A stretch of DNA of 9,715 nucleotides from a virus. Its lineage: Duplodnaviria; Heunggongvirae; Uroviricota; Caudoviricetes. The notes below the pieces were generated by a model. That model made no database searches, was not told the DNA's origin, and worked only from the letters and a program-made list of their open reading frames with translations. Shown here one piece after another: positions 1 through 9,715 of the stretch. Position 1 is the first letter of the stretch. The number at the start of each line of letters is the position of its first letter. A program made the translations under genes and the position numbers. The stretch lies in the IMG/VR virus record IMGVR_UViG_2713897054_000020. One strand, 5' to 3'.

Positions 1-282
1 TTATCGCCGTAACCGCTCCGGCTTCTTCCAGTGGTACGTAATTTTTTCTTTCTCCCGATACAGTTCAACGCGGCGATTGTAGGCCAGCATTTCCAGAACG
101 CGGATCCGTATGTCGCGCATATCCACGCCGTTAAGCTCAATACCGTCACGGCGCATCACCTCAGCAACCACACGCGCATAATTTTCGGCGGTCACGCTGT
201 CCGGCTGCGTGGCCTGTTCGTCAGCCTGCTGGCTGATTCCGGCAACGCGACGGATTAATCGCAGTAGTTCGGCTTCTGTCAT
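1..282 (-). CDS. hypothetical protein (93 aa), gene immediately beyond cos-1
   Basis: Complete minus-strand ORF: ATG at 282-280 preceded by a G-rich SD-like stretch, stop TAA at 3-1 at the window edge. Co-oriented with the rpp-like gene. No motif recognised. Confidence 0.45.
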   Translation of the reverse strand: MTEAELLRLIRRVAGISQQADEQATQPDSVTAENYARVVAEVMRRDGIELNGVDMRDIRIRVLEMLAYNRRVELYREKEKITYHWKKPERLRR

Positions 283-317
283 TGTGCCCCCATCGTTCTG
301 ATAGTCTGGTGTCGTCG

Positions 318-520
318 GGTCCTTCCTGGAATTATGGCCCGTTACGGGGCGGCGACCTCGCGGTTTTTATCTGTTTATGAAAATTTTCCGGCAAAAGTCA
401 GATCCGTTCTTCTTCTCTGTAACAGACTGTTTAAAAATGAAAATATTAAAAAAAGAAAGGATCTGACACGAGGCATTTTAGCCAGAAAATGTCATTATCA
501 GATCCTTTCTCATTTTTGTT
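318..520 (+). other. lambda-type cohesive-end site (cos-1): cosN core plus cosB-like R-site array
   Basis: 339-363 CCGTTACGGGGCGGCGACCTCGCGG matches the lambda cosN region as I recall it (12-nt cohesive end GGGCGGCGACCT = 347-358), followed by TTTATGAAAATTTTCCGG as in lambda. Downstream are three copies of an 8-mer, TCAGATCC at 398-405, inverted GGATCTGA at 459-466 and TCAGATCC at 498-505, with an A-rich tract between them (about 430-455), mirroring the lambda R3-I1-R2-R1 layout. Confidence 0.75.
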
Positions 521-537
521 CAATAATTGCGCGTCTG

Positions 538-1080
538 TTACTCGCCTTTCTTCTGTAGTAACTTCTCCGGTACGTCTCCGGTAGTTTCCATCAGGTAATC
601 AGCCAGTATCTGCGGGAGGTTGTCAGCAACTCCTGCGCAAGCATTACAGGCTTTAACCACTTCCTTTTTAAGTCCATCCAGCATAGCGGGGGTCATCTGT
701 GGGAAGCTCCTTTGCATAGTAAGCGGGAGGCTGTCCATGATTGATGAAATCTGACTCGCCAGTTTTGAAAGCGCGTACATGCAAAACTCTGTATCAATCA
801 CGTCACCGCGATCGCGCTCGTTTTTAAGTTCCTGCGCCTCTGCCTGTGCTGTCAGTAATCTGATCCTGACTCGTAAAAGTTCATCATCATCAATCTCACC
901 TTTGCCGTTTGTAAGCTGGCTAATTGCATTGTTAACCCTATTGTCTATCACGCTGGCAACATCATAAAACGCCTCACGGCCTTTACGCTCAACGGGAGTT
1001 ACTCCCCACTTGTCGAACGCTGTCGCACTTACACGGCAGCTTTTAGCCATGTTTTTTTTGTTCATCAGGTGCGATTTCAT
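538..1080 (-). CDS. small terminase (lambda Nu1) homologue; likely Rpp-type packaging-redirection protein of cos-type PICIs
   Basis: 180-aa ORF. The C-terminal two thirds align with lambda Nu1 (RLLTAQAEAQELKNERD...DTEFCMYALSKLASQISSIMDSLPLTMQRSFP versus Nu1 RLTRAQADAQELKNARD...ETAFCTFVLSRIAGEIASILDGLPLSVQRRFP). The N-terminal DNA-binding region is diverged (NKKNMAKSCRVSATAFDKW versus NKKQLADIFGASIRTIQNW). Flanked by cos sites. The start could be the ATG at 1080 or the in-frame ATG at codon 6 or 11. Confidence 0.85.
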   Translation of the reverse strand: MKSHLMNKKNMAKSCRVSATAFDKWGVTPVERKGREAFYDVASVIDNRVNNAISQLTNGKGEIDDDELLRVRIRLLTAQAEAQELKNERDRGDVIDTEFCMYALSKLASQISSIMDSLPLTMQRSFPQMTPAMLDGLKKEVVKACNACAGVADNLPQILADYLMETTGDVPEKLLQKKGE

Positions 1081-1187
1081 TAATACACCAACTTAATTAC
1101 TGCTTCAGGTTGGTGTATTGCTTGCATCTTTCCCTTTTTATTCATAAAGATAGAGCAAACAACAAAACCACCACCACCACCCTGAAA

Positions 1188-1254
1188 AAGCTCATAAATA
1201 GCGAAAAACCGCGAGGTCGCCGCCCCGTAACGGTCCATATGCCGGAAAGGACCC
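1188..1254 (-). other. second cos-like site (cos-2), inverted relative to cos-1, upstream of the rpp-like gene
   Basis: 1209-1233 CCGCGAGGTCGCCGCCCCGTAACGG is the exact reverse complement of the cos-1 cosN 25-mer. About 65 bp is shared with cos-1 at roughly 85 percent identity, including the flank TTTTTCGCTATTTATGA on the minus strand, which matches lambda. Read on the minus strand the order is cosN, a cosB-like region, then the terminase-homologue gene, i.e. the lambda arrangement. Confidence 0.65.
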
Positions 1255-1256
1255 GT

Positions 1257-1279
1257 AAAAAAAGCCGGATTTCTCCGGC
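1257..1279 (-). terminator. rho-independent terminator after the capsid operon
   Basis: Stem GCCGGA (1264-1269) pairs with TCCGGC (1274-1279) around a 4-nt loop. An A7 run at 1257-1263 gives a U7 tail on the minus-strand transcript. Lies directly after the stop of the 137-aa gene (1285). Confidence 0.6.
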
Positions 1280-1284
1280 CTGTC

Positions 1285-1698
1285 TCAGATGGTTTTCAGT
1301 ATGCGATCGATGTCGCCGTCATCGCCCGGGTTTCTGCCATCGTATGCCATGCCAGCTGATACGGCTTGCGGGCTGTGCATGTCCATAAAGTTTTCAAAGG
1401 CTGCGGTAAGCTCCGGCGCAACCCTCGGACGTTCCTGCTCTATGGTCATGCTAAGGATGCTTTTAGCCGTACCAACATCGATACAAGGCACGTTTGCCAT
1501 TGCACGTAACAGCGGCTGATAGTCGCCAGATTCATCAAGCGCCATAATCGCATCAGCGCGCGGCTTGTCCTGCTCTTCCAGTTTGTTAAGTTGATATATG
1601 GCCTCGTAGGTTGATAACCCTCTGTCAGCCATTGCCCGCGCTTCGGCTTTAAATTTACTCGCCAGCGGTAGCGTCATGATGCTTTCATTCGTTGCCAT
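1285..1698 (-). CDS. hypothetical protein (137 aa), last gene of the capsid operon; possibly an assembly or scaffold-type factor
   Basis: Minus-strand ORF, ATG at 1698-1696, 12-nt gap after the gpD-like gene with a G-rich SD. Acidic, Ala-rich, predicted helical. No motif recognised; the scaffold suggestion rests on position only. Confidence 0.55.
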   Translation of the reverse strand: MATNESIMTLPLASKFKAEARAMADRGLSTYEAIYQLNKLEEQDKPRADAIMALDESGDYQPLLRAMANVPCIDVGTAKSILSMTIEQERPRVAPELTAAFENFMDMHSPQAVSAGMAYDGRNPGDDGDIDRILKTI

Positions 1699-1710: not shown

Positions 1711-2046
1711 TTATCGGGCCAGCGGCTGAACGGATACGCCAGAACCCGCAAAGGCGGCGCATTTTTTCGCATCGGTGTCGACGCTCTCAGGCCAGTTAAC
1801 GGCGGCAATATTGAATATCCCCGTCTTGTAACACTGTGCTGATTTCTGCTTTGACGTGTCCACAGGATACGAAGTCAGATAAACAGCCTTGCCAGATTCC
1901 TGACCATCCCACGGCTTAAACTCGCCATTGTCCGCCAGCATCAGCGGGGTAAATTCCTGAATAACGCCAGCATCAGCGGCAAAATGTACCAGCGTCGTGG
2001 CGACCTGCTGACTGCCTGCGAATAACTCAATGTATGGAGTGTCCAT
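1711..2046 (-). CDS. head decoration protein, lambda gpD homologue
   Basis: 111 aa, about the size of gpD (110 aa). Blocks TPLMLADNGEFKPWDG and WPESVDTDAKKCAAFAGSGVSV align with gpD TPLMLDTSSRKLVAWDG and [30 protein letters not shown] upstream of ATG 2046-2044. Confidence 0.85.
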   Translation of the reverse strand: MDTPYIELFAGSQQVATTLVHFAADAGVIQEFTPLMLADNGEFKPWDGQESGKAVYLTSYPVDTSKQKSAQCYKTGIFNIAAVNWPESVDTDAKKCAAFAGSGVSVQPLAR

Positions 2047-2057
2047 AGAATCCCCCG

Positions 2058-3113
2058 TTAACCAATTTTGACGGTAACAAATTTGCGAATATCTGCCGGT
2101 ACCGGCTGCGGTGCGCTGTGTGTCTGCACGTACTCAATCGCCGGATCGCCGTCCTCAATCCAGTTTTTCGGGTAGTACATGTTTTGCGTTGCGCCCGTTC
2201 TGACCGCTTCCTGATCCATAATCGCACCATAGGCCACCAGGCCTTTATTGTTGGTGTTACCCAGGACCAGTAAATCAGGCTCAAGGAAATATTTTTCGGT
2301 GCCGTCGCTGTCAGCGTATTTGCCGGAATAGACGATAAGGGCAATATCGCCCAGATAGCCTTTAAAGCTCACCACTTCGCCCAGGTTTTTACAGGCCAGT
2401 TCTGCGGCGGATTCTGAACCACGGGAAAGATCGTACAGCTCACGGAATTTTTTAAAGCTGCGTAACGTGCGCCATACCTCAGCGCCCATAATCATGACGT
2501 TTGCGGGGCAACCAGCCTGATCAGCATAAAGCTCGATGTCATAGATTGGGTCGTGCATCTCTTTATCCTGCTCGGACCATTTTTTACCCTTGGCCTGCTC
2601 TATGATGCAGTTTTCCGGTATTTTCCAGTCTATTTCATAGCGTTCTATGCCTTCGCCCTCAATAATGTTTTTTCCGGTCGTTATCGCATTCACCGCTAGC
2701 CATTCCACGCGCGCTTTAATGGCGTTTACCTGGCGGCGCATGTTGCCAGTAATCAGGCGCATACGTCGGTAGGTAGGGTCGTTAAGCTGTGCCGGATCTT
2801 CTCCAGCCATGCGCATGATGGTTTTTGTTGGATCGATTTCGTGCTTTGGCTTCATGTAGCCAGGTTTAATCGTGCTGGTTTCGTATCCTTTATCGCGCTG
2901 TACCTGGCTGCCAACCATAGGCGAACAAAACGCCGACATGGTGACTTCTTCAATGTCCAGGGTATCCAGCATGATGTTTTGGGTGCTGAATGTCGCCACG
3001 TTCGGGAAAAACAGCGTGGTAAACAGCGGACTGAATTTAAATTCCGCAATATCCCCGCGATTCAGGTACGCAAAAAGCTGGTTAGTGTTAAGTGCCGTTG
3101 CTTTGCCTGCCAT
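2058..3113 (-). CDS. major capsid protein, lambda gpE family
   Basis: 351 aa versus gpE 341 aa. Conserved blocks run across the whole length: EFKFSPLF, PGYMKPKHEIDP, EDPAQLNDPTYRRMR, KGYLGDIALIVYSGKY, LVLGNTNNKGLVAYGAIMD and YPKNWIEDGDPA, against gpE KFKFDPLF, PGYVKPKHEVNP, EDPQNLADPAYRRRR, KGMYGDVAIVVYSGQY, MVLGNTQARGLRTYGCIQD and YPKNWVTTGDPA. The start overlaps the upstream stop (TAATG). Confidence 0.9.
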   Translation of the reverse strand: MAGKATALNTNQLFAYLNRGDIAEFKFSPLFTTLFFPNVATFSTQNIMLDTLDIEEVTMSAFCSPMVGSQVQRDKGYETSTIKPGYMKPKHEIDPTKTIMRMAGEDPAQLNDPTYRRMRLITGNMRRQVNAIKARVEWLAVNAITTGKNIIEGEGIERYEIDWKIPENCIIEQAKGKKWSEQDKEMHDPIYDIELYADQAGCPANVMIMGAEVWRTLRSFKKFRELYDLSRGSESAAELACKNLGEVVSFKGYLGDIALIVYSGKYADSDGTEKYFLEPDLLVLGNTNNKGLVAYGAIMDQEAVRTGATQNMYYPKNWIEDGDPAIEYVQTHSAPQPVPADIRKFVTVKIG

Positions 3114-3480: not shown

Positions 3481-3520
3481 AGCCCGATAAGCTTCCTCCT
3501 GTACTTATCGGGCTTTTTTT
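3481..3520 (+). terminator. strong intrinsic terminator, plus-strand oriented and possibly bidirectional
   Basis: Stem AGCCCGATAAG (3481-3491) pairs with CTTATCGGGCT (3504-3514) around a 12-nt loop CTTCCTCCTGTA, followed by a T7 run (3514-3520). On the minus strand it is followed by only UUUUGCUU. Confidence 0.55.
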
Positions 3521-3524
3521 GGGT

Positions 3525-3548
3525 ACAAAAAGCCGGATTTTCTCCGGC
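3525..3548 (-). terminator. rho-independent terminator after ssb
   Basis: Stem GCCGGA (3532-3537) pairs with TCCGGC (3543-3548), with an A-run at 3527-3531 giving a U-tail on the minus strand. Almost identical in sequence to the terminator at 1257-1279. Lies directly after the SSB stop (3557). Confidence 0.6.
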
Positions 3549-3556
3549 CTGTGCGT

Positions 3557-3967
3557 TCAGAACGGAATATCATCACCGTAGGGGTCATCGTCTCCCGCTG
3601 GTGGCTGATTACCCTGTGCGCCTGTGGTTTTGCGTCTGTTCCCGCCAGGACGTGCCGCACGGGCACTGATTACGCTGTCTGCAATAACCTGATAACCCTG
3701 CCGCGTTTCCCCGTTCTGTCCGGTCCACTGGCTTATCTGCATCACGCCAGATATGCTGGCAACGTCGCCTTTTTGATGTTTAGCCAGGAAGTCGGCCTGC
3801 TTACCAAATGCCATCACCGATAGCCATAACGTAGCCGTTCCGTCATCTGCCTGGCTGCACGGAAGGGGGACCGCCATACGAGCCAGCGTCATTGGTGTGC
3901 CCTTGCTGGTCTGTTTTACCTGCGGGTCGTCCACCAGCCGCCCGTAAGCGGCTATCTGTGCCGTCAT
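3557..3967 (-). CDS. ssb: single-stranded DNA-binding protein
   Basis: 136 aa. OB-fold core blocks GRLVDDPQ and WLSVMAFGKQADFLAKHQKGDVASISG parallel E. coli SSB GNLGQDPE and [28 protein letters not shown]. Gly/Pro-rich linker and an acidic C-terminal tail ending DDIPF, as in SSB. The ATG overlaps the upstream stop (ATGA). Confidence 0.85.
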   Translation of the reverse strand: MTAQIAAYGRLVDDPQVKQTSKGTPMTLARMAVPLPCSQADDGTATLWLSVMAFGKQADFLAKHQKGDVASISGVMQISQWTGQNGETRQGYQVIADSVISARAARPGGNRRKTTGAQGNQPPAGDDDPYGDDIPF

Positions 3968-4233: not shown

Positions 4234-4420
4234 TTTTGCGCCTCACTTTTTAAAGAGTCTCGCTTCGTCTCACTTGATATTTTTGATGTTTTTATGTGCA
4301 TGTTTCATAAGGATTTTTTTACTCCTCACTTTTTGGGGTATATATACGTTGAAAAGTGAGGAGTTCAGGGGGTTTTTCGTTCAATTACTCATTGTCCTCA
4401 CTTTTGCGCCTCACTTTTTA
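4229..4420. repeat. putative replication origin: iteron array with an AT-rich inverted-repeat core
   Basis: Two perfect 24-bp direct repeats CTCACTTTTGCGCCTCACTTTTTA at 4229-4252 and 4397-4420. The sub-motif CTCACTT(TT) occurs at least six times on the plus strand and once inverted. A 12-bp inverted repeat CTCCTCACTTTT (4322-4333) / AAAAGTGAGGAG (4351-4362) flanks the AT-rich spacer TGGGGTATATATACGTTG. Sits immediately 3' of the replication helicase gene. Confidence 0.6.
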
Positions 4421-5827
4421 CAGAGGGCCTACATCATCACCGTCGATATAAATAACCCCGTCTTTTTCCAGCTTGCGTAGCCAGCGGCTGAAGTTTTTCA
4501 TTTCGTACCCCAGCTTTTTCATATCGTCACGTAACAGCGGGATCGTGCACTTGTCGCCGTGCTGTGTGCGTGACCGGATACATCCCCATAGCGCAGCATG
4601 ATTCTCCGTCTTGTTGCCAGCCTCTTCGATGCGCTCCAGTTCAACGGGAGGACGCGGCTTATCCACCACCACCAGCGACGTGATTAACTCCCCGTCAGCG
4701 TCGGTAAAAAGCTCCACCACCCGCAAATCATAGGCAGCCTCTTTGAGTTCCTCCGCGTCCTTCATTTTGGTGCATGAGATAACCAGCGCTTCGCTTCCTG
4801 CGTCCTCCCTGCGTATCCGGTATTCAGCGTCCAGTGATGCACGAAATGCACTGGAACCACGCGCCCCCTTTGTTTCATCCTTGCCGGAATGGTGAACCAC
4901 CAGCACCGTAGCCCCTGTGCGCCGTTTAAGCTCGTCACAACCACGGATAAATGCCCCCATGTCGCGGGAGTCATTTTCATCATTGCCGCCAAAGCAACGC
5001 GCCAGCGTGTCCAGAATAATCATGCGAACAGGTTTACCCGTTTCCCTCTCCACCTGACTGGCAGCAATAACCAGTTCATCAACATCAAGCGGGACAGCCG
5101 GAAAGATGGGACGGTTTACCAGATACAGATTTTTCACCTGCTCACCGTGCACAACCTCCCAGGCTTTTACACGACGCGGAACGCCGATACCGCCTTCACC
5201 AACCACATAGAGAACAGCGCCATGCGCCACCCTGCGGCCTCCCCACTGGCGGCCCGTGGAAACGTGACACGCCCACGATCCGGCAAGGAATGATTTATAG
5301 GAACCGCTCGCCCCGTATATGCTGCAAAGCGACGATGCCGGAATAATCCCCTTTACCACGTAATCAAGCTGTGTGTCGTATCCGGTAGATCCAACGCTCA
5401 TCGGTAGCGTGGTTTTTCGCTGGGGAATTTTTTTCATGACCAGGCTTTCCCCGCGTTCCCATGCCTCCCTAAGCCGTGGAAGCTGGTCGCTCCATTCCTC
5501 CAGCAATTCGAAATTTTCAGAAAGTAGCCGCGCCTCCTGGACTCCGGCGATCGCCAGTTTCGTGGCGATGGTTAACAGCTGCGGCTCTTCAATATTTCCG
5601 GCGCGTATCACCGTCGCCCTGTATCGCCCATCATCAACAATCTGGAGGTTATCCAGTTCGCTTAACTGATAACGCCCCAGATAAACGGGAGGGACTGGAT
5701 CGCCTGCTTTTTTGGCCTGTGCAATGATGTAATGCTCTGCGAATGAATGAGCATCAATACCCGCAAAAATAATCGCATCGGTGTATTTATCTTTCGGTAA
5801 TAGTTTTACGTTCGGTGCCAGTTTCAT
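4418..5827 (-). CDS. replication initiator/helicase, RepA/DnaB-like RecA-fold ATPase (AAA_25-type)
   Basis: 469 aa. P-loop-like GASGSYKS, Walker B-like VRMIILDTLARCFGG, and a helicase H4-type motif ATVLVVHHSGKD. An N-terminal domain of about 170 aa and a C-terminal domain of about 70 aa are unassigned. SD AGGGGT; the ATG overlaps the upstream stop (ATGA). Confidence 0.85.
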   Translation of the reverse strand: MKLAPNVKLLPKDKYTDAIIFAGIDAHSFAEHYIIAQAKKAGDPVPPVYLGRYQLSELDNLQIVDDGRYRATVIRAGNIEEPQLLTIATKLAIAGVQEARLLSENFELLEEWSDQLPRLREAWERGESLVMKKIPQRKTTLPMSVGSTGYDTQLDYVVKGIIPASSLCSIYGASGSYKSFLAGSWACHVSTGRQWGGRRVAHGAVLYVVGEGGIGVPRRVKAWEVVHGEQVKNLYLVNRPIFPAVPLDVDELVIAASQVERETGKPVRMIILDTLARCFGGNDENDSRDMGAFIRGCDELKRRTGATVLVVHHSGKDETKGARGSSAFRASLDAEYRIRREDAGSEALVISCTKMKDAEELKEAAYDLRVVELFTDADGELITSLVVVDKPRPPVELERIEEAGNKTENHAALWGCIRSRTQHGDKCTIPLLRDDMKKLGYEMKNFSRWLRKLEKDGVIYIDGDDVGPL

Positions 5828-6123
5828 TTTTTACCCCTGAATCCGTTAATCATTGTTTTCAGCTTCTGGATGTTTGCCCGTGCCCTGGCGTTGCTGGTGG
5901 GCACGTTATGCGGCGCGGTCTGTACCAGAGAAAAATCACGCCGGAACTGATAAACAGGCATCACGCAATCATATTCGTAACCTTCACGGCGGTAAGTTAC
6001 GCACCGTCCCGCCACGCCCTTAATCATTACCGTACCGCCGTACTGGTCGCGGTAAATATCACCGCGCGTAAATTTAGGGTGAGTGTTGCCACTGGCAGTT
6101 AAGCCAGAATATTTAAGCTTCAT
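5824..6123 (-). CDS. hypothetical protein (99 aa), basic, coupled to the replication gene
   Basis: SD GGAGAA 8 nt upstream of ATG 6123-6121. Its stop TGA overlaps the rep ATG. Basic C-terminal tail. No motif recognised. Confidence 0.55.
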   Translation of the reverse strand: MKLKYSGLTASGNTHPKFTRGDIYRDQYGGTVMIKGVAGRCVTYRREGYEYDCVMPVYQFRRDFSLVQTAPHNVPTSNARARANIQKLKTMINGFRGKK

Positions 6124-7760: not shown

Positions 7761-7967
7761 TTAAGCGGTCGTTCCGCGCGCTTTTTGTTCGCGTTCTTTC
7801 ATCCATGCGATTACGTCTTCCTCATACCATCCGCGACGGCGCAAACCGACACGAAAACCCTGCGGGAATTCTCCGGCGTTGATCATGCTTTGCAGCGTGC
7901 TGTCTGCCTTAATGTGGATAAGTTTTTTTACTTCCTGGCGAAAGATGACTTTTTTGATTGCTTCCAT
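7761..7967 (-). CDS. alpA: AlpA-family (excisionase-like HTH) transcriptional regulator
   Basis: 68 aa. SD GAGGT 8 nt upstream of ATG 7967-7965. Sequence block STLQSMINAGEFPQGFRVGLRRRGWYEEDVIAWM follows the AlpA/Xis MerR-like HTH pattern (S.ST, G.FP, G.R, W, DV, W). Confidence 0.8.
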   Translation of the reverse strand: MEAIKKVIFRQEVKKLIHIKADSTLQSMINAGEFPQGFRVGLRRRGWYEEDVIAWMKEREQKARGTTA

Positions 7968-8473: not shown

Positions 8474-9715
8474 CTAAACGGCTCGGATACCCCTTTTACC
8501 ACTGGCGAGGGTTACGCCCGTCGCCGCAGCCTCGACAAATTCGCCCCACCAGCGCATAAGCACGATGCGTTTTTCTATGTAGTTGCTCCGGTTGTATGCC
8601 CGTCTGACTTCGTTGGTGTCGACGTGGGCAAGTGCGGCCTCTATTACGTCTGGCTCAAAGCCTTCTTCGTTCGCTGCTGTGCTGAATATGGCGCGTAATC
8701 CATGAGACACCAGCACGCCAGCGAATCCCATGCGTCGTAATGCTGCGTTAGCGGTCTGGCTGTTCATCGGCTGCTGTGGGTCTTTCAGACTCGGGAAAAC
8801 ATAATCGCGGTGGTGGCTGATTGGTTTCATAGCCTCCAGCACTGCCATAGCCTGGTCACAAAGCGGGATAACGTGGTCGCGGCGCATCTTCATGCGTCCG
8901 GCGGGTATGGTCCAGCGTTGCGCTTCCATGTCGATTTCTTCCCAGCGTGCCGACGATGCTTCAACGGGACGGGTTACGGTCAGTAACTGCCATTCAATCA
9001 GTAATCTGGTCTGCCGTTCTGTTGCCGATACTGATAAAGCCTGCATAAGCTCCGGCAGCTGTTCGGGGCGGATTGTTGGCATATGTTTTTTTACAGGGGA
9101 GGGGAACGCCTTACGCACATTCATAGCCGGATTGGCATCAATCATCCCACTATTGGCGGCGTAATCCATTACCTCATTTATACGCTGTAAAACTCGCTTG
9201 AGCGTTTCCAGGTTGCCACGTTCCTTGATGGGGGTAAGCACCTCAACGAACCTGCGAGCGGTCAGGGTGTCTATTGGCGTGTTGCCGATGAACGGGAATA
9301 CATATTTTTCCAGCGATCGCCAGATGTCTTTAATCGTATTGGGGGCCAGATTCTGGCTGATTTTCACCTGGTACCATGCTGTTGCCACATTTTCGAACGT
9401 GTTCCCTTGTCTTCGGGCCTCTGTCTCTCTTTTTTGCCTCTCGTGGTCCTGCGGGTCAGTTCCGGCACGAATTAACGCCCTGTACTCGCTACGGCGTTTT
9501 CTGGCATCAGCCAGGGAAACATCATCAAGCGATCCAAAACTCAGCAATATTCTTTTTTTGTCCGATGGTCGGTAGTAGGAAAATCTCCAGAGTTTTGATC
9601 CGGACGGTTTGATCAGGAGAAAAAGCCCTCCGCCGTCCTGTAGGGTGTATTCCTTTTCTGCTGGTCTGGCTGCTTTGATCTGTACTGTGGTTAATGGGGG
9701 TGTTTTTCTCGCCAT
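8474..9715 (-). CDS. int: tyrosine site-specific integrase, P4/CP4-57 family
   Basis: 413 aa. The N-terminal arm-binding region LTTVQIKAARPAEKEYTLQDGGGLFLLIKPSGSKLWRFSYY matches the P4-type integrase pattern (DGGGLYL..KP.GSK.WRF.Y). The C-terminal catalytic region carries HGLRA, HVIPLC and a late RRAYNRSNY segment that probably holds the catalytic Tyr. The ATG is the last three bases of the window, so the promoter and attachment site lie outside it. Confidence 0.9.
   Translation of the reverse strand: MARKTPPLTTVQIKAARPAEKEYTLQDGGGLFLLIKPSGSKLWRFSYYRPSDKKRILLSFGSLDDVSLADARKRRSEYRALIRAGTDPQDHERQKRETEARRQGNTFENVATAWYQVKISQNLAPNTIKDIWRSLEKYVFPFIGNTPIDTLTARRFVEVLTPIKERGNLETLKRVLQRINEVMDYAANSGMIDANPAMNVRKAFPSPVKKHMPTIRPEQLPELMQALSVSATERQTRLLIEWQLLTVTRPVEASSARWEEIDMEAQRWTIPAGRMKMRRDHVIPLCDQAMAVLEAMKPISHHRDYVFPSLKDPQQPMNSQTANAALRRMGFAGVLVSHGLRAIFSTAANEEGFEPDVIEAALAHVDTNEVRRAYNRSNYIEKRIVLMRWWGEFVEAAATGVTLASGKRGIRAV

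Follow-up and report, generated by a model that had tools for sequence, protein, structure and literature searches.

Satellites of the EcCICFT073 family of phage-inducible chromosomal islands (PICIs) move virulence and defense genes among E. coli, and to our knowledge their Rpp proteins represent the only characterized packaging hijack for cos-packaged Gram-negative PICIs. Rpps are short (139-154 aa), lack the C terminus that binds the large terminase (TerL), and contact the small terminase (TerS) via their DNA-binding domain and helix alpha3 (PMC9026076). Both cos sites of EcCICFT073 have been shown by experiment to be functional (PMC6092414); cos1 is required and RppA-specific, and deletion of cos2 raises lambda-mediated transfer (PMC6092414; PMC6739421). 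In the work of Fillol-Salom et al. 2019 (PMC6739421), two questions remained, namely, how Rpp arose and why two cos sites are present. Here we describe a 9,715-nt stretch of DNA (IMG/VR record IMGVR_UViG_2713897054_000020, hereafter the window) which is an E. coli PICI of the same family, and in which the place of rppA is taken by a full-length small terminase gene of the lambda Nu1 type, terS. A small terminase is an expected part in a known satellite family; satellite-encoded small terminases are already known, and SatelliteFinder treats the small terminase as a core PICI component (PMC10085698). Our preferred reading, which we hold with moderate confidence, is that TerS serves as the packaging-specificity factor of the satellite, binding its own cos1 and recruiting the TerL of a helper phage.

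The terS open reading frame (ORF) is intact (538-1080, minus strand, 180 aa), and its product carries the RefSeq label "terminase small subunit" (WP_047081414.1). It matches Pfam Phage_Nu1 (PF07471) with an E value of 4.9e-23 and 82 bits (cut-off, 30) over residues 62-148 only, and PHROG_57 "terminase small subunit" with an E value of 1.1e-52 over residues 1-173. By BLASTP, lambda Nu1 is 34% identical to the satellite protein (E value, 1e-33), and the best overall phage match is N15 gp1, at 46% identity (E value, 8e-54). The initial annotation, made from the sequence alone, had called this gene a small-terminase homologue, and these matches agree in identifying the product as a genuine Nu1-family (lambda/N15-type) small terminase. 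The gene is under purifying selection, with ratios of nonsynonymous to synonymous substitution rates (dN/dS) of 0.21-0.23 against three E. coli relatives, and of 5426 complete E. coli genomes, 487 (~9%) contain the module of terS and its two cos sites at a coverage of ≥80%, among them O157:H7, O55:H7, and Nissle 1917. The protein can be divided as follows.

Residues ~1-48: N15-type winged helix-turn-helix (wHTH)
Residues 72-127: conserved central region of the oligomerization type
Residues 128-166: variable C-terminal segment, aligned to the TerL-binding end of lambda Nu1
Residues 167-180: extra tail

As with lambda-type small terminases, terS lies directly downstream of a cos with cosQ, cosN, and cosB (cos1 at 1255-1156, minus strand). 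The adjacent or overlapping large-terminase gene of the phage arrangement is absent, which is expected for a satellite.

EcCICFT073, which we found in CFT073 at positions 17931-28655 of that sequence (L009), has the identical order of cos1, rppA, and inverted cos2, and terS fills the rppA slot between a 137-aa ORF and a 93-aa ORF. The features that make up and delimit this slot in the window are listed below.

316-391: left inverted-repeat arm, consisting of cosQ-cosN plus ~45 bp; left cassette boundary
316-520, plus strand: cos2, inverted; ends 17 nt from the terS stop codon
538-1080, minus strand: terS, 180 aa, the ORF under study
1156-1255, minus strand: cos1, directly upstream of terS
1181-1255: right inverted-repeat arm; right cassette boundary

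A 59-nt inverted repeat (86% complementary; ~76 nt with its extension) thus flanks terS, each arm carrying a cosQ-like element and the lambda cosN core GGGCGGCGACCTCGCGG. When aligned with EcCICFT073, the window is 93% identical from 3553 to 1184, where the similarity stops, and it resumes at 92% from 391 to 1, with nothing between aligning. With 92-93% identity beyond the arms and no alignment within them, the segment cosB1-specificity gene-cosB2 behaves as an exchangeable cassette, and the alignment indicates that the islands differ by a clean replacement of this segment, bounded by the inverted cosQ-cosN arms. An invertible segment was also considered and rejected, as every locus examined has its terS or rpp in the same orientation as the head genes.

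The 144-aa protein in the EcCICFT073 slot is RppA, as it matches RppC (PDB 6HLK) with an E value of 5e-31. The terS product shows no similarity to RppA by BLASTP (E value, 1.2), and a phmmer search with TerS against the PDB (E values up to 10) did not find RppC, though the RppA query does so readily. The comparison with Rpp proteins that the initial annotation had recommended therefore shows that, by sequence, the terS product is not an Rpp. Its location is that of one, directly after the island cos1 of an EcCICFT073-type PICI and within near-identical flanking DNA. However, Rpps are shorter, have a non-Nu1 oligomerization domain, and end without a TerL-binding C terminus, whereas TerS has 180 aa and aligns with Nu1 throughout.

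The cos1 site upstream of terS has a simple composition.

~1254-1242, minus strand: cosQ-like element GGGTCCTTTCCGG
1225-1214, minus strand: cosN cohesive-end core GGGCGGCGACCT, identical to that of lambda (bp 1 = 1225)
1181-1156, minus strand: N15-R3-like block GGTGGTGGTGGTGGTTTTGTTGTTTG, a single G/T-triplet block at bp 45-70

We saw no R2, R1, or I1 repeats and no IHF array in cos1. N15 has a sole R box at bp 48-60, located by scanning mutagenesis (PMC9026076), and the R3-like block of cos1 aligns to this N15 sequence, GAGGTTGTTGTTT (bp 48-60). The block is kept in 6/6 TerS-type PICIs examined, where the motif at the R3 position reads (GGT)n followed by TTGTTGTT. Since both are kept in TerS-type islands and both match N15, an N15-type wHTH and an N15-type R3 are conserved together. 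The cosQ and cosN elements are near-identical to those of lambda, and so a lambda-type TerL can probably cut cos1. The idea, put forward in the initial annotation, that DNA recognition has been retargeted to the cos of the satellite is a sensible reading of a gene with its own cos directly upstream and a cosB unlike that of lambda.

Two further observations concern the R3 position. In the Rpp-type island EcCICFT073, the sequence at this position of cos1 (GACACCACCACCAC, L009 ~27605-27625) is close to the reverse complement of (GGT)n. In two relatives, L018 and L019, the cos2 site carries CATCACCACCAATG at the same R3 distance (L018, ~2330-2345).

The second site, cos2, has the full phage-type architecture, cosQ-cosN-R3-spacer-R2-R1.

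316-329, plus strand: cosQ-like element
347-358, plus strand: cosN core
397-414, plus strand: R3
Between R3 and R2, plus strand: A/T-rich, I1-like spacer
450-467, inverted: R2
498-516, plus strand: R1

Its R boxes share the core CAGATCC(G/T)TTC. Three prophages, namely, one of E2348/69, Gifsy-1, and SerU-LTIIb, have an identical core upstream of their terS-terL genes. In alignments, these R boxes are unlike those of lambda, 21, and PhiR5_1; a lambdoid prophage of CFT073 served as the phage-21-type cos reference. A further ~214 E. coli genomes carry a cos2-type cosB at 60-80% identity, and the one that we inspected, E2348/69, proved to be a prophage. On this evidence, cos2 looks like a copy of the cos of one helper group.

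Such an arrangement raises the question of whether TerS might act mainly in interference or defense, titrating helper TerL or forming a dead-end terminase, with the satellite being packaged via cos2 and the helper's own TerS. The complete phage-type cos2, with R-box cores identical to those of one prophage group, would suit this explanation, and so would the precedents that Rpp, encoded at this very locus, blocks both lambda and phi80 (PMC6739421) and that SaPIs, the pathogenicity islands of Staphylococcus aureus, join packaging redirection with interference (PMC6739421). A pure decoy, however, needs no conserved cognate cos, and cos1 with its R3-like block is conserved together with the TerS wHTH in every relative examined. 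It is cos2 that varies: it has another cosN type, GGGCGGGAGCATCGCGG, in L018 (2281, plus strand) and L019 (2264, plus strand), the cos2 of L020 breaks off within cosN, directly behind the terS stop codon (2501-2573), and prophage-embedded relatives have no cos2 at all. We therefore consider a mainly interfering role improbable.

Several other cos sites deserve mention. L019 also has a variant cos1 cosN, GGGCGGCAGACGCGCGG (3149, minus strand). The original EcCICFT073 papers reported no identifiable phage cosB. In our analysis, the EcCICFT073 cos2 (L009 28100-28300, reverse strand) contains three repeats of CATGTCCGG/CCGGACATG, which are similar, though not identical, to the R boxes of phage 21 type (CATGTCGG) in the icd prophage of CFT073. 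Also, in L022, an E. coli element with SSB and PerC genes, a DUF1441-family protein (169 aa, with an HTH-like N terminus, 2439-2948) is encoded ~550 bp upstream of a cos2-type cosB (3501-3649), which is 86% identical to the cos2 cosB of the window. This DUF1441-family gene may be a third kind of packaging-specificity gene.

In the reading that we prefer, with TerS as packaging-specificity factor, the N15-type wHTH of TerS would bind the single R3-like block of cos1 (GGTGGTGG...TTGTTGTT, ~45-70 bp from the nick site), the Nu1-type center would oligomerize, and the variable C-terminal segment would recruit the large terminase (gpA type) of a lambda-like helper. The helper TerL would then nick the lambda-identical cosN and package satellite concatemers into helper-made heads. 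The cos2 site probably lets helpers of CAGATCC(G/T)TTC specificity package the satellite with their own unmodified terminase. Overall, a satellite that combines its own TerS with the TerL of a helper would parallel the SaPIs, but among cos phages, and this would replace the Rpp strategy that EcCICFT073 uses at the same locus. We infer DNA binding at the R3-like block, direct TerL recruitment, and the role of cos2 from sequence comparisons. Capture of TerL is supported by the full length of TerS, which aligns through the C-terminal TerL-binding region of lambda Nu1, unlike the Rpps. That packaging must rely on a helper, as the initial annotation argued, likewise remains a sensible reading of an element with its own cos, a satellite-specific mode of DNA recognition, and no terL.

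Because different regions of TerS would have different partners, we compared them with phage small terminases one by one. Against lambda Nu1, identity is 31-40% in the wHTH (residues 1-48, with a 19-column indel), 57% in the center (72-127), and only 26% over residues 128-166, the most diverged region; the 14-residue tail (167-180) has no lambda counterpart. Uniform similarity to Nu1 over the full length, which had been named beforehand as the mark of an ordinary small terminase, is therefore not fully borne out by the alignment. It had also been claimed that the C-terminal two thirds are highly similar to Nu1, and this holds for the middle of the protein but not for its last third. In lambda, TerL binding maps to the C-terminal ~40 residues of Nu1 (PMC9026076), and the equivalent of this region is the least conserved part of the satellite protein, contrary to the expectation that the conserved part would be the one contacting the large terminase.

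The N-terminal region is 60-62% identical to that of N15 gp1; the alignment contains a single gap column, and the short linker is shared. The winged-helix region is thus substantially different from that of lambda, as had been noted, but it is not uniquely diverged. In a relative with 57% identity overall (79% over residues 1-48), the Pfam Nu1 model reaches the N terminus too. Lambda and N15 TerS are themselves 33% identical at the N terminus and 78-79% identical at the C terminus. Since these two bona fide phage proteins show it as well, the combination of a similar C terminus with a different N terminus is not in itself the signature of a satellite, as which it had been interpreted; modular TerS proteins of the lambda-like kind show it generally. 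In the C-terminal segment, the phage protein closest to the satellite one is PhiR5_1 Nu1, from an E. coli lambdoid (51-56%, versus 26-28% for lambda, N15, and 21), and its center is 66% identical to that of TerS. A tblastn search with the last 63 residues brought up no phage TerS above 56% identity.

The pattern changes when the comparison is made inside the satellite family. TerS homologues in a large protein database form two groups, an E. coli/Shigella clade (77-100% identity) and an Enterobacter/Citrobacter clade (57-61% identity). The latter proteins are also encoded in small satellites, inserted in the capsid gene of lambda-like prophages, and none of the Enterobacter/Citrobacter-clade terS genes examined adjoins terL. 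Conservation was computed over 31 satellite TerS members.

Residues 1-48, wHTH: 30/48 invariant; 93% identity within clades, 75% between clades
Residues 72-127, center: 28/56 invariant; 92% and 91% identity within clades, 69% between clades
Residues 128-166, C-terminal segment: 3/39 invariant; 68-69% identity within clades, 30% between clades

Within the satellite family, the order of conservation proposed in the initial annotation is thus reversed, with the wHTH being the most conserved region and the C-terminal segment the most variable. The dN/dS is 0.04-0.12 for the wHTH and 0.30 for the C-terminal segment. The synonymous rate (dS) is itself elevated in the C-terminal segment (0.56-0.64, versus 0.15-0.24 in the wHTH and 0.06-0.42 in the center), exceeding that of the center in all three comparisons, and even near-identical TerS proteins of E. 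coli carry the segment in discrete variants, for example ...VADNLPQILADYL... versus ...LDENIPRMLSDYL.... This pattern suggests mosaic exchange of segments from different sources rather than simple drift. Import of segments with such high dS from different sources would be expected if the C terminus tracks different helper TerLs.

Some of the relatives are of interest for their location. The nearest TerS proteins from outside E. coli, at 57-59% identity (L010-L016), are encoded in small islands that share the module of capsid, decoration, and terS genes. In lambda-like prophages, these islands interrupt the major capsid gene (helper-embedded PICIs). A cos precedes terS in them, and the inverted second cos is missing. 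H106 was considered as another prophage-embedded relative and rejected, being a chromosomal island near clpS/cspD.

It is also important to point out the observations that weigh against TerS as a factor that captures helper TerL. The C-terminal segment, despite its alignment with the TerL-binding end, reaches only 51-56% identity with the best phage match and 26% with lambda, and no cognate helper was identified; in view of this weak match to phages, direct TerL binding by TerS is a prediction. The most phage-like part is instead the center (57-66%), which would equally fit mixed oligomers with helper TerS. In addition, island-bearing genomes mostly have no second copy of a cos2-type cosB (median, one place per genome), and we identified no resident helper in them; as these genomes mostly have a single cosB copy, a resident helper of the cos2 type is apparently usually absent. 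An AlphaFold2 model of TerS, built from a 31-sequence alignment, was of low confidence (mean per-residue confidence [pLDDT], 55.6) and was not used beyond the order of secondary-structure elements, which at the N terminus is predicted to be strand, helix, helix, two wing strands, helix. A Foldseek search with this model against the PDB gave no match at an E value of ≤0.001 and only weak matches to MerR-type wHTH proteins (E values, 0.08-0.9), and the phmmer search of the PDB mentioned above returned neither the lambda Nu1 DNA-binding domain nor RppC, but chance matches only. Given these outcomes, the wHTH assignment rests on the similarity to N15 gp1 and on the predicted order of elements. Finally, the searchable literature yielded no experiment on this protein and no experimental work on Nu1-type TerS proteins of cos PICIs or of E. 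coli PICIs.

Several of these points could also be explained if TerS worked in the manner of an Rpp, without its own contact to TerL. TerS would then form mixed oligomers with helper TerS through its center, poisoning recognition of the helper cosB, while the C termini of the helper TerS would bring TerL and the satellite wHTH would direct the complex to cos1. The position of terS, precisely where an island that is otherwise 92-93% identical carries rppA, is what would be expected in this case, as are the strong similarity of the center to phage TerS (57% for lambda, 66% for PhiR5_1) and the poor conservation of the C-terminal segment against all sequenced phages. Murialdo and Feiss, moreover, argue that helper TerS supplies the TerL-binding domain in hijacking by Rpp (PMC9026076). 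However, TerS has no sequence similarity to RppA or RppC, and Rpp meets TerS through its DNA-binding domain and helix alpha3 rather than through the center (PMC9026076). TerS also lacks 17-19 residues of the lambda alpha3 region, the site of TerS contact and of the escape residues 43-70 (PMC6739421). Furthermore, a full-length C-terminal segment is kept under purifying selection (dN/dS, 0.30), which would be needless without contact to a partner. On balance, we judge the Rpp-like mode, the main rival reading, to be rather unlikely.

As for the satellite itself, the whole window is 100% identical to chromosomal segments in E. coli O91 RM7190 and STEC2017-197. In the annotated genome, it has a yejO pseudogene on one side and tRNA-Pro/yejM on the other, and the 8 kb on each side consist of core genes. 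Its gene content, all on the minus strand, was assigned from the ORF list, Pfam, PHROG, and RefSeq annotation; besides terS, it includes the following.

8474-9715, minus strand: integrase
7761-7967, minus strand: AlpA-type HTH
Next in order, minus strand: Icd-like protein
5824-6123, minus strand: DUF4222 protein
4418-5827, minus strand: RepA/AAA_25 helicase, 469 aa
3557-3967, minus strand: SSB
2058-3113, minus strand: lambda gpE-type major capsid protein
1711-2046, minus strand: gpD-type decoration protein
1285-1698, minus strand: 137-aa ORF
1-282, minus strand: 93-aa ORF

Gene order is fully syntenic with EcCICFT073 (int, AlpA-like HTH, Icd-like, DUF4222, replication, SSB, gpE-like, gpD-like, 137-aa ORF, packaging gene, and 93-aa ORF), and DNA identity between the two is 76-93% over most modules. 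The element shows the layout of Gram-negative PICIs of the EcCICFT073 family in having ~10 kb, a tRNA-Pro site, int, an alpA-type regulator, a replication module, and mostly one-directional genes, with no tail or lysis genes, and it has the two inverted cos sites with phage-like cosQ and cosN (316-520 and 1255-1156) of a two-cos PICI. No large terminase, portal, tail, or lysis gene is present in the window or within 8 kb on either side. This confirms that the window lacks a large terminase, as the initial annotation had stated, and extends the finding to the flanks, where it had allowed that such a gene might yet be found. Together with the synteny, the absence of terL and portal genes, and the core-gene flanks, it also settles that the element is a satellite: the window is an EcCICFT073-family PICI of E. 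coli, located between tRNA-Pro/yejM and yejO.

These findings bear on the simplest alternative, namely, that terS is an ordinary small terminase in a decaying prophage, or that its partner large terminase lies just outside the window. The plain annotation as "terminase small subunit" and the membership in the Nu1 family would be compatible with this. It is effectively refuted, however, by the core chromosomal genes without TerL, portal, tail, or lysis genes on both sides, and it is at odds with a PICI organization syntenic with EcCICFT073, with an intact gene under purifying selection whose module is found in 487 complete genomes, and with relatives at 57-59% identity that are likewise located in small satellites and not next to a TerL gene. 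We regard it as very improbable indeed. A capsid-forming PICI was also considered and rejected, since a large terminase, portal, protease, and head-tail connectors of its own are all missing from the element.

Other parts of the element yielded some additional observations. The replication module is of the 469-aa RepA/AAA_25 helicase type in the window (4418-5827), versus a 584-aa DNA primase family protein in EcCICFT073 (L009 22242-23996), and we found no DNA similarity between the two islands across the replication gene, which suggests that it is a second swapped module. The 137-aa ORF (1285-1698, minus strand), which follows the decoration gene and precedes cos1, has a match to PHROG_1999, a group of unknown function. 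A second match, of its residues 45-119, is to the head-maturation-protease profile PHROG_53 (positions 494-567 of 583), the C-terminal part of which may be scaffold-like, judging by lambda C/Nu3. One homologue of this ORF is named "phage head-tail connector protein" by RefSeq. A terminator-like hairpin with a T-run (1262-1281, minus strand; a consensus match only) follows the 137-aa ORF just before cos1, and no promoter-like site was found between it and terS. Conceivably, terS is transcribed from the head-gene operon, by read-through or antitermination. Directly 5' of the terS start codon, where no obvious Shine-Dalgarno sequence was seen, an 11-bp inverted repeat (AATACACCAAC ... GTTGGTGTATT) is located at 1082-1119; it is only partly kept in relatives and may be a translational or binding-site hairpin.

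Taken together, the presence of a full-length Nu1-type TerS in the Rpp slot points to a second packaging route besides Rpp, in which the satellite would keep its DNA-recognition domain and cos and swap the protein end that would meet the helper large terminase. The value of terS lies in its occupying the Rpp slot of an exchangeable cassette, in the conservation of its DNA-binding half and cos next to a variable C terminus, and in an accompanying cos2 whose R-box cores are those of one specific prophage group. A broader reading, which we offer only tentatively, is that TerS-type and Rpp-type islands are two states of one cassette delimited by inverted cosQ-cosN. A Nu1/N15-type TerS would be the ancestral or alternative form behind Rpp, capturing helper TerL via a fast-swapping C terminus, and cos2 would be a deliberate copy of the cos of another helper group, giving two independent packaging routes and a wider helper range. 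If true, the exchangeable cassette would answer both where Rpp comes from and why some PICIs carry two cos sites. Helper range might also be predictable, with the C-terminal type of TerS and the R-box type of cos2 as possible markers of helper specificity.

SaPIs add a separate Ppi protein that blocks helper TerS, and no Ppi-like gene was identified in the satellite element described here. The resemblance to the pac-type staphylococcal PICIs is one of strategy: there, as summarized in PMC6739421, the satellite's own small terminase (TerS_S) recognizes satellite DNA and uses the helper large terminase, though the TerS family is unrelated and packaging is headful (pac) rather than cos-based. Capsid-forming PICIs (cf-PICIs) share head genes (major capsid protein) and a small terminase with our element; they differ in that they are reported to encode all capsid and DNA-packaging proteins and take only tails from the helper (bioRxiv 10.1101/2022.09.08.507074), whereas the satellite here has only capsid, decoration, and TerS.

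Among phage proteins, lambda gpNu1 has the same Pfam family, the same three-part layout, a center with 57% identity, and a gene directly after cos. It differs in the wHTH (31-40%, with a 17-19-residue deletion in TerS), in the C-terminal equivalent (26%), and in lacking the 14-aa tail, and the satellite has neither a three-R cosB upstream of terS nor a gpA gene downstream. N15 gp1 is closer, with 46% identity overall, 60-62% in the wHTH, and the same short linker, and the N15 cos resembles cos1 in that a single R3-like, G/T-rich block is found equally far from cosN, and an R2/R1/IHF-site array is lacking (PMC9026076). However, the C terminus of N15 gp1 is lambda-like (79% to lambda), whereas that of the satellite TerS is 28% identical to N15 gp1; the N15 gene overlaps terL, whereas the satellite has none; and the cosN of the satellite is the lambda sequence, not the N15 variant.

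The closest described counterparts by location are RppA and RppC of EcCICFT073-type PICIs (Fillol-Salom et al. 2019, PMC6739421; PDB 6HLK and 6HN7), encoded at the same locus, downstream of cos1 and upstream of the inverted cos2. The proteins share no sequence similarity with TerS and are shorter (139-154 aa versus 180 aa), Nu1-type central and C-terminal regions are found only in TerS, and the R3 position reads (GGT)n-TTGTTGTT in TerS islands versus GACACCACCACCAC in EcCICFT073. What the two have in common is an N-terminal wHTH-type region paired with an island-specific cosB and a dependence on the terminase of a lambda-like helper.

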